Of a stretch of DNA of 64,000 bases, positions 40,599-47,666 are shown piece after piece; position 1 is the stretch's first letter, and each line of letters starts with the position of its first letter. The DNA comes from Acidobacteriota bacterium (GTDB taxonomy: Bacteria; Acidobacteriota; UBA890; WLXD01), in contig CBDFKD010000002.1 in assembly GCA_965248695.1 (NCBI GenBank), positions 4,544,001-4,608,000 of the forward strand, read 5' to 3'. The position numbers and the translations under genes were made by a program. The notes beneath the pieces were generated by a model that was given only the letters and a program-made list of their open reading frames with translations, was not told where the DNA came from and made no database searches.

Positions 40599-42023
40599 TT
40601 ATCGCAGCCCGACCTGGCCCTTGACCGAATCCAGCAGCTTGCCGGCGTCGTAGCCGATGCCGTCCTTGAAGACGGTGACGACGTTGCGGATCACGCTGGC
40701 CGCAGTGGTGAGATCGCCTTCGAGAACGGCCAGATCTGCCAGCATACCGACCGCGATCGTGCCGCGCTCGTGGTCGACGCCGAGCACTTTGGCGCCGTTG
40801 GCGGACATGATGCGTACTGCCTCTTCGGGTCGAAATCCGGATTCGACGAACAGCTCATAGTTCCGATGATCGCCGAATCCCGGAAGCGCACCTCCCGCAG
40901 GATCGACGCCGCTGGCGAGTATCCCGCCGGCCTCGACGAAAGCGCGGTTGAACGCCATCGCGTTGGCCAGCAGCCCCTTCATGAAGGCGCGTTCCTGTGC
41001 CGTCTCGCGGGTGCGCTCACGAAGCTCCTGGTACTCCTGACGCAGGCGTGGAGTCATCATCTCCAGGGCTCGCGGATGCACGTCGGGGCGATCCGGGATC
41101 CTCCACTCGAACACCGACAGCGTCGAAGTCAGCGGCACGCCGTGTGCGACGATGTGGCGAATAGATTCCTGCACCTGTTCGCTGTCGATGTCGAGGTCGG
41201 CGAGTGTGGCGGTCATCTGCGGCGGGCAGACGTCGACCTCCTTGCCGGGGACGAAGTCGCTCATCGTGATGAACGAGTGCTCGAGGTTGTCGATGCCCAA
41301 CTCGACGGCCTCGCCGTGGGTCACCGAACACAGATGCGCTGTTACCTTGATGCCGCGCTTGTGGGCCTCGTCGATGGCCGCGCCCAGCGTTTCCCGGCTG
41401 ATGCTGGTGTAGGCCTTCATCCACTCGATGCCTTCCTCGTCCCAGTAGGCCACTAGCCTGCGAGCCTCCTCCGGCGTCGCGGTCTTGGGCTCGACGGTGT
41501 CGAGTGGGTTCGTGCTGTTGTCCAGGTACGGGCCGGTGACGTGCATGTGTGGCCCGGGGACATCGCCGCGATCGATCTGGGCTTTGACGTTGAGGTCGCT
41601 GTACGCCAGCACGGTGCCGGTGGTGCGGATCGTGGTGACGCCGCTGCCGAGATACAGGCGCGGCGCCGAGAACACCATTTGGCTATAGATCGCCCCCGGG
41701 GAGGTGTAGAACGTGTGGTTGTGCAGCCCGATGAGACCTGGAATGACGGTATGGCCGCGCAGCTCCAGCACCTCGGCACCGGAGGGGATCGGTACCTCCC
41801 CTGTGGCTCCCACCGCCGCGATACGACCGTTCCGGATTAGCACCGTCTGATCACTGGCTGGCGGCGCGCCGGTACCGTCGATCAGTTGCACGTCGGTCAA
41901 CGCCACGACCCCCGCGTCGACGCTGACGAACTCCATCGTTTCCGGGGCGAGGGCGGGCGGCGCTTGCGCCGCCGCGACGCTGGCGAGCGTTGCCATGATT
42001 AAGGCGTAGGTAGGGGCTCGCAT
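40599..42023 (-). CDS. Secreted amidohydrolase family protein
   Basis: Signal peptide; IPGLIGLHNH, GVTTIRT, KAY, TAH, LEH, GVD, GTIAVGMLADL. Confidence 0.92.
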   Translation of the reverse strand: MRAPTYALIMATLASVAAAQAPPALAPETMEFVSVDAGVVALTDVQLIDGTGAPPASDQTVLIRNGRIAAVGATGEVPIPSGAEVLELRGHTVIPGLIGLHNHTFYTSPGAIYSQMVFSAPRLYLGSGVTTIRTTGTVLAYSDLNVKAQIDRGDVPGPHMHVTGPYLDNSTNPLDTVEPKTATPEEARRLVAYWDEEGIEWMKAYTSISRETLGAAIDEAHKRGIKVTAHLCSVTHGEAVELGIDNLEHSFITMSDFVPGKEVDVCPPQMTATLADLDIDSEQVQESIRHIVAHGVPLTSTLSVFEWRIPDRPDVHPRALEMMTPRLRQEYQELRERTRETAQERAFMKGLLANAMAFNRAFVEAGGILASGVDPAGGALPGFGDHRNYELFVESGFRPEEAVRIMSANGAKVLGVDHERGTIAVGMLADLAVLEGDLTTAASVIRNVVTVFKDGIGYDAGKLLDSVKGQVGLR

Positions 42024-42027
42024 CGGT

Positions 42028-43404
42028 CTACTCCTGCACGCGTAGTGTCAGCGCCACGTCCTGGCGCCGATAGAGGCAAATCCCGTTGACGTCCTCGCAT
42101 ACGTAGTAGAGGGCGTATCCCGGCAGCTTCAGGTCGCCCTCCGGGGCGTTGTCCGGAACGCGAATCTCGAACTCGACCGTGCGCGGCTCCAGGCTCACGG
42201 TCTGCGGTGGGTTGGCGACCGTGAGGACGCGGTGATCGACCTGCCACTCGTCGGGCGGCTCGATCCAGAAAACGAGATCATCGACCTCGTTGTTCCAGTG
42301 CGCCTTGATCGCATCGTTCGGCAGGAACGTCACGTGAGCGCGGGTGCTGGCGCCCGGTGCGACGGTGCCCGGCACCAGAGTGCTCTCGGCGACCACGTAG
42401 GTGCCGTCGTCGCGCAAGATACGCTCGTCGATCACCGGCGGGACGGTGGTGTCGGCGACAAAGGCGGGCGTTGGCCGGGCGAACTCTGCGCCGCCAGGCT
42501 CCACGACGAGCTCCGCTGGCGTTTCGCCACGGGCAGTGATCTCGGCGCGCGCCGTCGGGACCCAGTCGTAGAAGGGGTACGGCTTGTCCAGCCGCGGTCC
42601 GTACTGCTGAATGCGCCGTCGCCAGATGTAGTTGTTGGGGTCGACCGTCAGCGCCGCTTCCCAGTAGTGCACGGCGCGCTGGAAGTCGCCTGGCCGGGCG
42701 GACGGGGAGTCGTAGCGGCGCCGGACTGCCACGCCGGCGCGGAACAGGCCGTAGCCGTGCCCCGGATTCGCGCCGGCGGCATCGGCGAATGCATCGACGA
42801 TGGTGTCGATCTCGTCGTTGCCGCCCCAGCGGTACAGATCGTGAGCCCGCTGCCGAGCCGCATCCACCGCCACCGGCTGGCTCAGCGCGGGAGCTCTGGG
42901 TGCCTCGAACGCCACGTCGACGAAGGTGCGGCGCAGCTCATCCGGGTTGTCCAGCGGCGGGTGTATCTGCCGGACGATGCCGTGCTCGTCGATGGCCAAG
43001 GTCAACGGCACGACGTCTATCTCCAGCAGGTCGAGAGAATCCACCAGCACCGGCCAGTCCATCCGCTTCCATTGCATGAACAGGCGCGCTCGATCCGGGT
43101 GCTGCTCCTGCACGATGCCGAGCATCTGGACGTCGCCGGCGGCTCGCCAGGTTGCGGTCGCTTCGTGCCACCCGGGCACGTGCACGCGGCAGCCTGCTCA
43201 CCACGAGGCGAACACGTGCAAGATCAGCTTGTGGCCGCGAAAATCAGCGACGCTGCGACGAGTGCCCTCCAGGTCGGGGAGCGAGATGGTCGGGAACGGG
43301 CGGCCGATCTCCGGCGCGGGCGCGCTCTGCGGCACAGGCCCGGGGGCTGGAATCACCGCCATCAGCATCACCAGAGCTCCGAGGCTCGCCGCTCGTGTGG
43401 TCAT
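42028..43404 (-). CDS. Putative exported selenoprotein (458 aa): TlpA/AhpC-TSA thioredoxin-like domain with UxxC, helical middle region, DsbD-alpha-like C-terminal domain
   Basis: GGAG RBS, ATG 43404, signal peptide. Reads FPTISLPDLEG...DFRGHKLILHVFASW-TGA(43200-43198)-AGCRVHVPGW in frame into the 42028..43185 ORF. SECIS-like hairpin follows; C-terminus YYVCEDVNGICLY. Confidence 0.88.
43159..43188 (-). promoter_or_regulatory. Bacterial SECIS-like hairpin
   Basis: mRNA after UGA: CGC-GUGCA-CGUGCC-[CGGGU]-GGCACG-AA-GCG; the apical loop starts 24 nt after the UGA, with G at loop position 2. Confidence 0.65.
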
Positions 43405-43610
43405 GTTCTGTCTCCGGATCTCGCCAACGTGCGCACTCGCCCCGCCAGGGAAGCTCACGTTCGTCTGCCGGCGCAGTCTATCCTGGTGAGGCCGTAGTTC
43501 ACCAAGAGCCCGACGACGCAATCGACTCCCTCGCTGCGCCTTGATCTCACCGGGAGTCCGATCCGCAGCATGCAACGATCATCTCTTGCAGTCCGCTAGC
43601 CTCCTCACCG

Positions 43611-44976
43611 GTGCGTGTGACAATGAGCTTTGGATGGTCTGGAGGAGTTTGGCGGCGGTGGAGCCTGGCTGCTGCTCTGGTGACGGTGTGGGTTACGGCG
43701 CTGCCTGGGGCGGCTGCGCAGCTGTCGGTCGATGTCGCGACGGAGATCTGGCGAGGCGATGTGGATCAACGGCTGGCGACTGCCGATCGTCTGGCCGCGT
43801 CGGGGTCCTTCGACGAGCTCTACGCGGCACTCGAAGCCGGTCCGCGCTACGACGGCACCTCGCCTACAGGACGGCTGCTGCACCGGCACGAGATCGGCGG
43901 TGTGGGGCATTCGTACCTGGTCCAGGTGCCCGGCGACTATGATCCGGTGCGGCGCTACCCGGTGCGGGTGTATCTGCACGGTGGGGTCGCTCGCGGCGAA
44001 GTTCCCGACAACGGCGGCTGGTGGCGCGATCCGAATCGTCTGGCGAGCTCCGACCACATCGCCGTGTTCCCGGCGTCGTGGGGTGCCTCCAAGTGGTGGC
44101 AGGAGAGCCAGCTGCTCAACCTGACGGCGATCCTCGCCAGCTTGAAGATGACCTACAACGTCGATGAGAACCGAGTGCACGTTGTCGGGGTTTCGGACGG
44201 CGGTACCGGGGCGTGGTACATGGCGTTCCGCGACCCCACGCCGTGGGCCAGTTTCGTGCCGATGATCGGCCACCCGGCGGTGCTCGCCAGCCCGCGGGTC
44301 GACGTCGAGGGACAGATGCACGTGGTCAACCTCCGCAGTCGCCCGTTCCTGGTGTTCAACGGTGAGGTCGATCGGTTGTATCCGGCGCGCAGCGTCCGGC
44401 CGTACATCGAGCTATTCCGCGACGCCGGCGTGCAGGTGGAGTTCATCGAGATCGCGGGCGAGGGGCACACGGTGCGATGGTGGCCCGAGCGCGCCGACCG
44501 CATCGACGGATTCCTCACGTCGACGCGGCGCGATCCGCTACCCAGCCGCCTCAGCTGGGAGACCGAGGACGTCACGCGCTTCAATCGCTCCCACTGGATG
44601 GTGATCGATGCACTGGGGCCGGCTGACGGCGACGCCGCCTTGCCGGACATCGAGCGCCGTCTGGCGGATGCTTCCAATCTGCTGGTCGGATTTCCGCGGG
44701 CGGCGTCGAGCGGCCCGTGCCGAAGCGACGGTCGACGGGAACGATATACAGATCCGCTCGCGCGGAGTGCGTCGTATGCGATTGTTGTTGTCGCCGCGTC
44801 AGTTCGACCTGTCCCGCGCCGTACGCGTACGGGTCAACGGCATCGAGCGCCACGCCGGCGTGGTTGAGCGGAGCAAACAGACGTTGTTGCGCTGGGCGGC
44901 GCGAGACCTCGATCGGTCGATGCTCTTCGGCGCCGAGCTGGAAATCAGAATCCCGCCGGCGCGCGGGTCTCTGTAG
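43611..44976 (+). pseudogene. Secreted alpha/beta-hydrolase (PHB depolymerase/esterase-like), with one +1 frameshift at ~44715 (real or sequencing error)
   Basis: VYLHGG, GVSDGG nucleophile elbow, NGEVDRLY, GEGH; removing one C from CGGCCCG (44711-44717) joins ...SSG to RAEATVDGN...DRSMLFGAEL*. Confidence 0.8.
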
Positions 44977-45088: not shown

Positions 45089-46561
45089 ATGAACAACCGA
45101 GCGGTGCACAACACTGGTTTCGTCAGCCCGGTCGCACTGGCGGCGATCATCACGCTCGCCGTATCACCGGCGTCCGCACAGTGGGCTCAAGCGCCGCCAC
45201 GGGAGGTCGTGATCACCGGCGGCTGGTTGTTTGACGGCATTCGCGACACGCGTGTCCGTAACACCGGCATCGTTATCCGCGACGGCAAGTTTATCGAGGT
45301 CGGGGCCGACCTGCGGGGTCGCTACTTTCCTGCGGCTCAGATGGTCGAGCTCGACGACGGCGCCACGATCTTGCCGGGCATGATCGATCTTCACGCGCAC
45401 CACAACATGAACATGGTCGGGGTAGGGCGGGCCGAGGAGGTCACGTACAACTCGATGATCTTCCTGGCTAACGGAGTTACCGCCACCTGGTCGGCGGGAG
45501 AGTTCTTCCCCGAGCGTGTTATCGAGGCGCGCGATCGCATCGATCGCGGCGAGGCGATCGGGGCGCGGGTGTTCGCCTCCGGCCCCTACTTCGGCGCTTT
45601 CCGATGTGAGTACCAGATCCAGACCGCTGAGGACGACTGTATCGGGTGGCCGAACGACATCACCGAGACCGAGATTCGTGCCGAGGTCGACTACTGGGCG
45701 CAGCAGGGAGTCACCAGCATCAAGATCAAGCAGTCGACGCCGGAGGAGATGCGCATTCTCATCGACCAGGCGCATCGGCGGGGCATGACCACGACGAGTC
45801 ACCTCGGCAACTACGCCGGTAGCTATGACGTCGAGCCCGCGGATGCCATCGCTATGGGGCTCGATCGCGTCGAGCACTGGATCACGCGAGGTAGCGAGCC
45901 GGAGCCCGGCGAGCTCGAACGCCTGATCGGGCTGTTCTTGGAGGAACAGGTTTACTTCGATGCCAACCTGCAGATGTTCGGTGGCAACATGGCCAACCAC
46001 CCGCAGCTCGATATGGTGTGGGTGGACGAGTACAAGTACTTCACCCCGTACGCTCAGGCGCGTATCCGAGAGCGCCTGGCTGCCGGGGCGGAGCCGGCGG
46101 ATGTGTATGTGGAATCGGCGAGCTTCCGCCGCCGTATGGCGGAGGTCGGGGCGCTGTTCGAGTCCGGCGGCGGCGACCTGCTCATCGTCGGCACCGACGA
46201 GCCTACGTCGGGGCCCTGGCTTCCAGGCTTCGCCTACCAGCGCGAGCTGATGGTCATGGCGCACGCCGGATTGCCGGCAGCCGCGGTGCTCAAGGCAGCA
46301 ACGATCAACGGTGCTCGTGCGCTCGGGGTCGTCGACCGTCTGGGTTCGATTGAGCCCGGGAAGTTGGCGGACCTGTATATCACCGAGGGCAATCCGCTGG
46401 AGGACATGTCCGCCGCCCGCAACGTCCGCCTGGTGATCAAGGCCGGGGTGGTCTACGACCCGGAGGCCTTGCTGAAGGCGGCCGAAGGCAAGATCGGACC
46501 TGCCGGGCCGGACGATCACGATGCCTGGGAATTGAAGGTCAAGCCCCTCGTCAGGCAGTAG
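45089..46561 (+). CDS. Secreted amidohydrolase family protein
   Basis: Signal peptide; LPGMIDLHAH, KIK, TSH, VEH, GTD, GSIEPGKLADL. Confidence 0.92.
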   Translation: MNNRAVHNTGFVSPVALAAIITLAVSPASAQWAQAPPREVVITGGWLFDGIRDTRVRNTGIVIRDGKFIEVGADLRGRYFPAAQMVELDDGATILPGMIDLHAHHNMNMVGVGRAEEVTYNSMIFLANGVTATWSAGEFFPERVIEARDRIDRGEAIGARVFASGPYFGAFRCEYQIQTAEDDCIGWPNDITETEIRAEVDYWAQQGVTSIKIKQSTPEEMRILIDQAHRRGMTTTSHLGNYAGSYDVEPADAIAMGLDRVEHWITRGSEPEPGELERLIGLFLEEQVYFDANLQMFGGNMANHPQLDMVWVDEYKYFTPYAQARIRERLAAGAEPADVYVESASFRRRMAEVGALFESGGGDLLIVGTDEPTSGPWLPGFAYQRELMVMAHAGLPAAAVLKAATINGARALGVVDRLGSIEPGKLADLYITEGNPLEDMSAARNVRLVIKAGVVYDPEALLKAAEGKIGPAGPDDHDAWELKVKPLVRQ

Positions 46562-46636: not shown

Positions 46637-47617
46637 TCAGTCGGGCATCTTCACGGCACGGGCGCCGTTTTGCGCCGCCCGGACGCACAGGTACTCGAGT
46701 GCAATGGCTGCCCCGGCGAGCGAGGTGATCTGCGCGTGATCGTACGGCGGTGCAACCTCGACCAAGTCCATGCCGGCGTAGTCGATCTGGGTCAGCTCTC
46801 TGAGGATCGATGACGCCTGGTGGGTCGTCAGACCGCCGGGGACGGGAGTACCCGTGCCAGGAGCGTATGCTGGGTCGAGGCAGTCGATGTCGAACGTCAG
46901 GTACGCCTTGTGATCGCCGACGGTTCGCTGGATCTGCGCTGCGATCTCGGCGGGCGTCGAGCGGTGCACCTCGTCAGCGTAGATGATCCGCATGCCGAAC
47001 GAGCGTTCCCCGGTGTAGTAGGTGCGGATGCCGATCTGCACCGATCGTGCAGGATCGATTACGCCTTCCTCGATGGCGAGTCCGAACATCGTGCCGTGGT
47101 CGATGCGATCGCCGACATTGGGCTCGACGTCGCGATGGGCGTCGAACTGGATGAGCGAGAGGGGCCCATGTACCGCCGCGTAGGCACGCAGCATCGGATA
47201 GGTAACGTAATGATCCCCACCAATCGCCATCGATGAGGCGCCGCCGGCGATGATCCCCGCAATGTGCTGCTCGATCACCTGTGGAGCACTGGCGATGTTC
47301 CCGTAATCGAGCTCGCAATCTCCGTAGTCGACCACCGCCAGCGTGTCGAACGGATCGAACATCCACGGCCACTGGGGTCCCCAGGCGAAGTTCGCTGACG
47401 CCTGCCGCACGCCCTGTGGCCCCAGCCGGGTTCCGGGACGATTGCTCGTCGCCTGGTCGAAGGGAATCCCGGTAACCGCGATATGGGCGGCCGTCAGGTC
47501 GCGCGTGTACTTGCGACGCATGAACGAGAGTGCGCCCGCGTAGGTGGATTCGATGACACTTCCTGTCAGGCCCTCACGTTGGAAGGCGCTATCACCGCTG
47601 ACCTCACTTTCAGACAT
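46637..47617 (-). CDS. speB: Agmatinase (ureohydrolase family)
   Basis: GIPFDQATSNRPGTRLGP, GGDHYVT, FDAHRD, DHGT, TFDIDCLDPAYAPGTGTP, VEVAPPYD. Confidence 0.88.
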   Translation of the reverse strand: MSESEVSGDSAFQREGLTGSVIESTYAGALSFMRRKYTRDLTAAHIAVTGIPFDQATSNRPGTRLGPQGVRQASANFAWGPQWPWMFDPFDTLAVVDYGDCELDYGNIASAPQVIEQHIAGIIAGGASSMAIGGDHYVTYPMLRAYAAVHGPLSLIQFDAHRDVEPNVGDRIDHGTMFGLAIEEGVIDPARSVQIGIRTYYTGERSFGMRIIYADEVHRSTPAEIAAQIQRTVGDHKAYLTFDIDCLDPAYAPGTGTPVPGGLTTHQASSILRELTQIDYAGMDLVEVAPPYDHAQITSLAGAAIALEYLCVRAAQNGARAVKMPD

Positions 47618-47648
47618 TCCGATTCCCGTTCCAAGGCCACGAGTAGTT

Positions 47649-47666
47649 ATCAATAAACTTTATTAT
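47649..47666. promoter_or_regulatory. AT-rich palindrome / possible LysR-type (T-N11-A) operator between divergent speB and kinase genes
   Basis: AATAAA-C-TTTATT at 47652-47664, in an AT-rich patch within GC-rich DNA. Confidence 0.35.

Follow-up and report, generated by a model that had tools for sequence, protein, structure and literature searches.

The stretch of DNA analysed here (the window, 64,000 nucleotides) corresponds to C2:4544001-4608000, that is, to part of contig C2 of an Acidobacteriota genome assembly of 5.89 Mb in two contigs; the coordinates below are window positions unless they are prefixed with C2 or with a locus number (L). On the minus strand of the window, two open reading frames (ORFs) predicted with translation table 11, 43198..43575 and 42028..43185, lie in one common frame, and the minus-strand letters between and around them read ...CAC GTG TTC GCC TCG TGG TGA GCA GGC TGC CGC GTG CAC GTG CCC GGG TGG CAC G.... 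Translation from 43404 to 42028 with this TGA read as selenocysteine (Sec, U) yields a product of 458 residues in which U69 is the only non-standard step, and the protein sequences of both halves, before and after the TGA, can be aligned with those of orthologues (47-90% identity). The two adjacent reading frames are one mis-split gene for a selenoprotein, the features of which are collected in Table 1. An earlier note on this stretch had proposed that the two frames are interrupted solely by the TGA, that the product comprises 458 residues and that the TGA is codon 69, and both the ORF list and the translation (ATG 43404 to TAG 42030-42028) agree with these proposals. Taken as a whole, the locus is very likely, judging from sequence comparison, a single gene encoding an exported selenoprotein with Sec at U69.

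An assembly or sequencing error for TGC or TGT, which the same note had pointed to as something that reads might reveal, is excluded, with a probability that is practically nil, because contigs of two public runs were shown to contain no differing letter over 43165-43404, though these represent one sample that is possibly the assembly's own source, and because the same codon is present in 80 independent assemblies.

Table 1. Features of the recoded gene and its two neighbours (window positions)
Feature	Position	Strand	Basis
Complete recoded coding sequence, 458 codons plus TAG stop (42030-42028), ATG 43404-43402	42028..43404	-	Translation with TGA as U; full-length alignment to orthologues
Putative Shine-Dalgarno-like GGAG, 7 nt 5' of the ATG	43412..43415	-	Read from the sequence
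TGA read as selenocysteine (U69), motif F-A-S-W-U-A-G-C	43198..43200	-	Reading frame and orthologue comparison
TGC, Cys72, resolving residue of U-x-x-C	43189..43191	-	Invariant in orthologue alignments
Hairpin of the selenocysteine insertion sequence (SECIS) type, 6-bp stem (5 bp kept in 80/80 sequences), loop CGGGU 43174-43170, UGA-loop spacing 23 nt	43164..43180	-	Bacterial SECIS (bSECIS) criteria, alignment, folding
Signal-like N-terminus: Arg4, hydrophobic LGALVMLMAVI, Pro-rich stretch	43315..43404	-	Translation; crude orthologue screen
Thioredoxin fold, TlpA/ResA/CcmG type, residues 33-148	42961..43308	-	Pfam and PDB matches
Pro133, aligned to the cis-Pro loop of solved TlpA/DsbE-type proteins	43006..43008	-	Invariant; structure alignments
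Two tetratricopeptide repeat (TPR)-like repeats, about residues 183-258	42631..42858	-	Orthologue-profile match to consensus TPR structures
Near-invariant linker P-N-N-Y-I-W-R-R-R-I-Q-Q-Y-G-P-R-L-x-K-P-Y-P-F-Y-D-W-V, residues 256-282	42559..42639	-	Invariant alignment columns
C-terminal immunoglobulin-like (Ig-like) beta-sandwich, probable distant DsbD_N relative, residues 318-458	42031..42453	-	Profile-profile comparison
Cys436-x6-Cys443 pair (TGC 42099-42097, TGC 42078-42076) in Y-Y-V-C-E-D-V-N-G-I-C-L-Y	42076..42099	-	Invariant columns
Amidohydro_1 amidohydrolase, downstream; starts 4 nt after the selenoprotein stop	40599-42023	-	
Divergent 418-codon ORF with signal-like N-terminus, upstream neighbour	43611-44867	+	No Pfam match at E 1e-4 or lower

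Conservation of the UGA codon and the selenocysteine machinery

In a six-frame search of 41 related genomes, which yielded orthologues of 49-90% identity, each match spanning residue 69 was shown to carry an in-frame TGA, and in all 14 orthologous loci that were excised this TGA is located inside F-A-S-W-U-A-G-C. A scan of one genome per species returned 217 relatives, the best 80 of which are covered by the locus counts given here (some genomes being shared with the 14-locus set), and TGA was found at codon 69 in 80 of these 80 loci. The scan was unbiased towards TGA, because matches were possible only via the pattern GI[IV]QEQHP, the other pattern having been back-translated with Cys. The metagenome-assembled genomes (MAGs) that contain the 80 loci are labelled as Acidobacteriota, Gemmatimonadota, Planctomycetota and Verrucomicrobiota; one locus (L054) retains the TGA with Ser replacing Pro in the peptide that follows it. 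When 301 genomes were evenly drawn from the phylum (at least 90% complete), an orthologue was observed in 18, including one unpublished genome, and TGA was present in 17 of 17 matches spanning residue 69 (16 of 16 without the unpublished genome). A complete genome listed with a C-terminal match only (G108) was also shown to encode F-A-S-W-U-A-G-C. TGC or TGT at codon 69 was not observed among orthologues in the 80 loci, the 301-genome sample or the 150 best protein representatives described below, so that the comparison of homologues suggested in the earlier note returned TGA in every spanning match of the three locus sets and a Cys codon in none.

TGA is otherwise an ordinary stop codon in these organisms, which terminates the orthologue in locus L025 and a TlpA paralogue of the genome under study. 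The segment C2:2182963-2183466 was considered as a TGA-bearing paralogue and rejected, as it encodes an ordinary WCAPC protein whose TGA is the stop codon.

The genome encodes the components of Sec insertion, with selA (522 bits, cut-off 268), selB (330 bits, or 354 including its C-terminal piece, cut-off 242) and selD (319 bits, cut-off 125) all scoring above their cut-offs, and a tRNA-Sec with an Rfam score of 70 bits (gathering score 47) to which ARAGORN assigns the anticodon TCA. The statement that SelA, SelB, SelC and SelD are not encoded in the window holds, and is complemented by the presence of selA, selB, selD and tRNA-Sec(TCA) elsewhere in the genome, which is the outcome of the search for this machinery that had been proposed. 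An FdhA with one in-frame TGA was also identified (1315 bits, cut-off 814). Among the 41 relatives, selA scores above its cut-off in 36, and G023, the one genome that has an orthologue and lacks selA, is 69% complete.

Public protein collections reflect the splitting of the gene that had been predicted for standard gene callers. A hidden Markov model search with a 30-sequence profile was performed against 1.84 billion representative proteins, and among the best 150 matches, 143 are fragments or have their start downstream of the Sec column, six are full-length proteins without TGA and the remaining one (P0216) results from an artefactual frame shift. In a second collection, the 120 best clusters all cover only 78-85% of the query and none of them spans the TGA, meaning that six divergent non-TGA relatives are the only public proteins, among these representatives and clusters, that extend across this position. 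The other public entries are N-terminally cut 'hypothetical' or 'TPR repeat' proteins devoid of a signal peptide and of half the catalytic domain, and no model that would rescue such entries is present in NCBIfam release 20.

This universal splitting, together with the unexceptional folding energy of the downstream hairpin, is what would be expected if the TGA were a true stop, in which case the locus would represent a broken gene or would specify two products, an exported peptide of 68 residues and a cytoplasmic protein of 385 residues with GTG 43185 as its start codon. Such an arrangement is very improbable, since one codon is retained in 80 of 80 loci from four phyla with protein-level constraint on both of its flanks, the split would fall between the first strand and the active-site helix of a thioredoxin fold, the downstream product would be without a signal segment, and the genome possesses a full Sec machinery.

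In a FastTree phylogeny of 77 sequences, the 18 Gemmatimonadota rows are monophyletic with a support of 99 and nest within the Acidobacteriota rows, and Planctomycetota and Verrucomicrobiota rows are scattered, a topology that is compatible with transfers between phyla and is no proof of them. A same-genus orthologue in genome G002 (L050:4001-5008, identical to the L031 gene) contains a second in-frame TGA at codon 337, and the orthologues L051 and L052 change frame ~30 codons before their C-terminal end; these are either decaying copies or MAG assembly errors.

Additional TGA-containing genes were observed outside the window in the same genome. Two of these are related to formate dehydrogenases, namely the alpha subunit gene of the FdhA mentioned above, with Sec at the classical ...R-L-U-H-G-P-T-V... 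(L160, C2:287086-290085, plus strand) and a second formate dehydrogenase-like gene with TGA in ...A-T-U-H-A-P-T-V... (L161, C2:253932-254681, minus strand), each followed by a hairpin. A second thioredoxin-fold selenoprotein gene (L123:1147-2127, minus strand, C2:3011710-3012690) contains W-A-S-W-U-G-C; its product has a TPR-like tail and scores 279.6 bits on NF041054 (cut-off 300). A third candidate (L126:1201-1941, plus strand, C2:3733163-3733903) encodes a ResA-like domain with the motif F-W-S-P-T-U-L-A-C; its TGA is in frame, the hairpin GUGAGGA-GUU-UCCUCAC comes after it, and no NCBIfam model exceeds its cut-off on this candidate (best 78.5 of 170).

The SECIS-type hairpin and the inserted residue

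The earlier note had described a CGUGCC-CGGGU-GGCACG hairpin with its loop 24 nt downstream, and this element was indeed located at 43180-43164, the first loop base being the 24th after the UGA. The legend to Fig. 2 of PMC13188914 defines the bacterial SECIS model by the length of the loop (3-9 nt) and of the upper stem (4-16 bp), a G within loop positions 1-2, a UGA-loop spacing of 16-37 nt and a minimum free energy of at most -7.5 kcal/mol. Measured against the model as given there, the 5-nt loop, the stem of 5-6 bp, the G at loop position 2 and the spacing of 23 nt all fall within the permitted values, as does the minimum free energy of -8.5 to -9.6 kcal/mol. In a G+C-rich genome, this geometry alone is weak evidence.

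More telling evidence for constraint at the RNA level is provided by the near-frozen synonymous sites of the hairpin. The gene has 35 conserved four-fold-degenerate codons, and those within the hairpin (V76, P77 and G78) exhibit third-position entropies of 0, 0.23 and 0.28 bit, compared with a median of 1.63 bit and a minimum of 0.81 bit for the other 32, the minimum belonging to G71, two codons after the UGA. The stem cells of the alignment are paired in 98.1% of cases. Across 79 distinct sequences, four of the six stem pairs are constant, one is G-C in 76 and G-U in three, and one is C-G in 67, U-A in three and unpaired in nine; RNAalifold retains the 5-bp hairpin and finds no conserved lower stem. 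The peptide encoded by the hairpin, H-V-P-G-W-H, is altered in all six relatives without TGA, indicating that the hairpin constraint travels with the UGA.

The loop form N-G-[G/U]-N-U closed by a C-G pair also occurs in two other TGA genes of the genome, the FdhA hairpin having the loop A-GUC-U 18 nt after the UGA, and the hairpin of the WASW-U-GC paralogue (CUGCC-AGGUU-GGCAG, encoded by L-P-G-W) being placed 20 nt after the UGA, 3 nt nearer than that of the window gene. A genome-wide scan with the narrow pattern TGA-N(12-27)-TGCC-NGGNT-GGCA produced five matches, two of which have open frames on both sides, these being the window gene and the same paralogue. Metagenome contig depth was shown to rise ~20- to 30-fold exactly over 43132-43223, which includes the active site and the hairpin, in three runs, with contigs breaking at the edges, consistent with many community members possessing near letter-for-letter copies of this segment. 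A scan for promoters and terminators revealed nothing above shuffled sequence.

The UGA might also be read through as another residue, in place of Sec or in addition to it, with Cys or Trp, for instance, supplied by a near-cognate or mischarged tRNA and with the hairpin promoting read-through in a general way, and the identity of the inserted residue is not decidable from sequence alone. This is nevertheless very improbable. The redox-active Cys of WCxxC is the textbook site of Sec, and it is this position that the UGA occupies. The hairpin conforms to the SelB-type model and is similar to the FdhA hairpin and to that of the WAxxUGC paralogue in this genome, selA is present in every sufficiently complete genome that has the gene, and TGC or TGT forms, which would be expected if Cys served equally well, were not seen in the 80 loci, the 301-genome sample or the 150 best representatives. 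Insertion of Sec at U69 is, on this comparative evidence, highly probable. On reaching UGA codon 69, a ribosome would encounter SelB with Sec-tRNA(Sec), which the hairpin, beginning 17 nt downstream of the UGA, would position there, and Sec would be inserted without termination.

Domain architecture and the proposed redox relay

The N-terminal part of the protein was shown to match Pfam AhpC-TSA (PF00578; 40.9 bits, threshold 26) and Redoxin (PF08534; 34.6 bits, threshold 26.6), and the best solved-structure matches of residues 29-155 are TlpA, ResA, StoA, CcmG/DsbE and the pneumococcal Etrx proteins. W68-U69-A-G-C72 and V132-P133 are invariant in the orthologue alignment and align with the WCxxC motif and the cis-Pro loop of the solved proteins. 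Cys at the Sec position is encountered at the superfamily level only, as the first Cys of W-C-x-x-C in 3or5, 3hdc, 3kh7 and 2yp6, in line with the proposal that the TGA occupies the place of the first Cys of the TlpA/ResA motif. The NCBIfam equivalog and subfamily models for TlpA, ResA, StoA and DsbE all remain below their cut-offs (35.8/170, 30.7/210, 30.6/230, 17.8/359 and 16.1/123), and the protein is orthologous to none of these four. In a crude screen of 80 sequences, an uncharged hydrophobic run of at least 11 residues was present in 59 and a lipobox-like motif in ten; export of the protein is likely, as predicted from its signal-like N-terminus.

The earlier picture can be extended in that the C-terminal 310 residues contain a pair of TPRs followed by a DsbD_N-like domain, in which there is a second Cys pair, and in that the family is widespread. 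The TPR sequence of the protein itself lies below Pfam cut-offs, and homologues carry precomputed TPR Pfam matches. Cys436 and Cys443 are invariant in 77 of 77 sequences and are the invariant Cys residues of the extension. When a 77-sequence profile of residues 318-458 was compared with 26 DsbD_N domains from the relatives' genomes, hhalign returned a probability of 92.7% (E 4.2e-7, 123 columns), compared with at most 1.7% for the reversed template and ten column-shuffled controls; the 26-sequence alignment was needed for significance, as no significant match resulted when one DsbD_N sequence was used (probability 0.2%). In this alignment, K-A-H-W-N-N-E falls on the G-W-H-x-Y motif region of DsbD_N and Cys436 on the first Cys of y-Q-a-C-d-d-x-x-C, the second Cys being one column off and the spacing being x6, compared with x4 in the DsbD_N domains of the same genome. 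The C-terminal domain sequence of the window protein itself matched no Pfam family, and no PDB match was obtained with the C-terminal domain profile at E up to 10. An Ig-like fold is a safe prediction for this domain, and a relationship to DsbD_N, not membership of that family, is probable, because the profile comparison is positive and single-sequence Pfam searches favour NPCBM_assoc.

The genome encodes one CcdA/DsbD_TM protein, two ordinary DsbD_N proteins and one Redoxin-DsbD_N fusion. The fusion was observed as a 282-codon frame (L131:1441-1893, plus strand, C2:2996672-2997022 region) that combines a Redoxin/AhpC-like domain with a P-Y-C motif and a DsbD_N domain (49.6 bits); it is retained in all four same-genus genomes, and fusions of a thioredoxin fold with DsbD_N therefore recur in the lineage.

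The six full-length relatives without TGA (P0223, P0224, P0229, P0232, P0248 and P0253) share the common full-length architecture at 29-38% identity. Their Sec column is occupied by Ser in five and by Cys in one, in the context C-E-G-S, such that none of the six contains U/C-x-x-C, and the C-terminal pair is incomplete in all of them: a single relative keeps the Cys of the Cys436 column, and no relative keeps that of the Cys443 column. All 77 Sec forms consequently possess both redox centres, and in all six non-Sec forms each of the two is defective; it is on this co-occurrence, a deduction drawn among related sequences, that the case for cooperation between the two centres chiefly rests. The six relatives are presumably redox-dead, which, as they maintain the full scaffold, would imply that the scaffold also has a non-redox role.

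Within DsbD, electrons are exchanged between cDsbD and nDsbD. A comparable exchange may be proposed for the window protein, in which Sec69 would substitute for the nucleophilic Cys of W-C-x-x-C and would cycle through a Se-S bond (selenenylsulfide) with Cys72, making the enzyme a thiol-disulfide reductase of the cell envelope. The TPRs, the linker and the DsbD_N-related C-x6-C domain would most likely form a second redox station or docking module exchanging electrons with the Sec centre, electrons passing between the latter and C436/C443 in the manner of cDsbD and nDsbD, and reductant could be supplied via the single CcdA/DsbD_TM protein of the genome. Interdomain thiol-disulfide exchange in DsbD is the subject of PMC2631958, according to its abstract. 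An intramolecular relay between the Sec centre and the C-terminal Cys pair has, from the sequences compared, roughly an even chance of being correct.

A competing explanation accepts a true selenoprotein and grants its C-terminal domain no more than a general binding or anchoring role, as an Ig-like module whose disulfide is structural. The Sec-containing thioredoxin domain would then act alone on an external substrate, in the manner of TlpA, ResA and Etrx, and there would be no internal relay. This is a serious contender, if somewhat short of an even chance, as the single-sequence Pfam matches (29 of the 77 members match NPCBM_assoc and one matches DsbD_N) and the x6 rather than x4 spacing of the Cys pair agree with it, and the sister family NF041054 combines thioredoxin and TPR-like parts without this domain. 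It accounts less readily for the alignment of the whole domain to DsbD_N, first Cys on first Cys and with clean controls, for the invariance of the Cys pair in all 77 Sec forms, and for the incomplete pair in all six relatives that also lack the Sec/Cys centre, which would be unexpected for a merely structural disulfide.

For the reading as a whole, that of a selenoprotein with a Sec centre linked to a DsbD_N-like domain, several results pull in the opposite direction. Covariation in the hairpin is thin, with four of six pairs constant, one pair with three double changes and no compensatory pairs according to RNAalifold; a 61-nt stretch containing it folds no better than shuffled sequences (z 0.24; 114 of 200 shuffles at least equal), and no Rfam family was detected for 43050-43300 at E up to 10. 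The C-terminal domain of the window protein has no Pfam match to DsbD_N (PF11412, threshold 25 bits) at E up to 10, and one of 77 members has such a match, at E 0.078, while NPCBM_assoc, another Ig-like family, is matched by 29 of 77 members (best E 7e-5). No CxxC orthologue was seen in the 80 loci, the 301-genome sample or the 150 best representatives. Lastly, no neighbouring gene points to a partner or substrate, no ORF cluster being common to more than five of the 80 loci.

Tentatively, and with somewhat less than an even chance, the proteins may be taken to constitute an undescribed family of obligately selenium-dependent envelope oxidoreductases, in which a Sec-containing TlpA-like domain and a DsbD_N-like domain are joined via TPRs into a soluble, self-contained two-station relay. 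In such a family, Cys would never replace Sec, the SECIS constraint would fix H-V-P-G-W-H across four phyla, and the reaction would be one in soil and sediment bacteria for which sulfur is insufficient. New thioredoxin-fold selenoprotein families turn up regularly. The present one is of interest as a widespread soil-bacterial protein of which public databases hold only cut-off versions, and as a clean example from nature where Cys does not seem able to stand in for Sec, where an RNA element dictates an invariant protein stretch and where the presence of a second redox centre tracks that of the selenium centre. It adds a predicted periplasmic selenium requirement to Acidobacteriota and Gemmatimonadota, and raises the testable question of what selenium does here that sulfur cannot.

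With regard to the gene neighbourhood, the amidohydrolase gene is probably co-transcribed with the selenoprotein gene, because it starts 4 nt after the stop of the latter, and this linkage is retained only in the closest relatives. Two Amidohydro_1 paralogues were observed to flank the locus (40599-42023, minus strand, and 45089-46561, plus strand), with an arginase-family gene nearby (46637-47653, minus strand).

Comparison with known systems

Thioredoxin-fold UxxC proteins are the commonest predicted bacterial selenoproteins, according to extracts of PMC13188914, PMC9312934 and PMC2398784, and those of the first two name the classes 'Prx-like thiol:disulfide oxidoreductase' (PF00578), 'Redoxin family protein' (PF08534) and 'Thiol-disulfide isomerase-like' (cd02966). 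The window protein shares with these classes, as they are described there, the Pfam domains, the UxxC motif and a SECIS element immediately downstream, and under the domain-plus-motif scheme of these reviews (PMC13188914, PMC9312934) it would be placed with them. In contrast to these classes, for which the same extracts report many Cys homologues (GOS table 2,608-2,740), no CxxC orthologue of the window architecture was found, and the class descriptions, which were the basis of the comparison, make no reference to an extension by TPRs and a domain resembling DsbD_N. The one fusion of a thioredoxin-type selenoprotein with a Cys-bearing unknown domain that was found described, Prx-like 3/Unknown_3, has three conserved Cys including a CxxC, whereas the extension of the window protein has two invariant Cys with x6 spacing, and the two are not the same.

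Full-text literature searches revealed no mention of a selenoprotein combining thioredoxin, TPR and DsbD_N parts, though published supplementary sequence sets may list members. In the extracts available, the terms TPR and tetratricopeptide are absent from PMC13188914, PMC9312934, PMC12013277, PMC5029168 and PMC2398784, the word 'Acidobacteria' is absent from PMC5029168 and words beginning with 'Acidobacteri' are absent from PMC13188914 and PMC9312934, and Acidobacteriota are named once in PMC12013277, for a test genome.

When compared with TlpA, ResA, CcmG/DsbE, StoA and Etrx1/2, the active-site motif and the cis-Pro loop of the window protein align; these are single-domain Cys-based enzymes, whereas the window protein is multi-domain and, by prediction, Sec-based. 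Like DsbD, it would be an envelope protein that combines a thioredoxin-like domain with an Ig-like domain of the DsbD_N type, both of them equipped with a redox pair. Unlike DsbD, it has no transmembrane domain, its thioredoxin domain comes first (a reversed order) and TPRs lie between the domains; moreover, its thioredoxin centre is predicted to contain selenium, its Cys pair has x6 spacing and the PF11412 threshold is not reached.

The nearest curated family is NF041054 (WAxxUGC_long), a sister family. Both consist of an exported TlpA/ResA-like thioredoxin fold with an active-site Sec and a TPR-like helical region that ends in a similar motif, W-x-x-A-L-x-x-(D/N)-P-N, and in both the hairpin is encoded by (V/L)-P-G-W and adopts one shape, GUGCC-CGGGU-GGCAC in the window gene and CUGCC-AGGUU-GGCAG in the paralogue of the same genome. 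The window protein differs from NF041054 in scoring 56.3 bits against a cut-off of 300, over model positions 84-200 only, in having one more residue between U and C (W-U-A-G-C, U-x-x-C, compared with W-A-x-x-U-G-C, U-x-C), and in an extra DsbD_N-like domain of ~140 residues with a Cys pair. In kind, it is a known type of protein, a thioredoxin-fold UxxC selenoprotein, with a new architecture and in a new subfamily.

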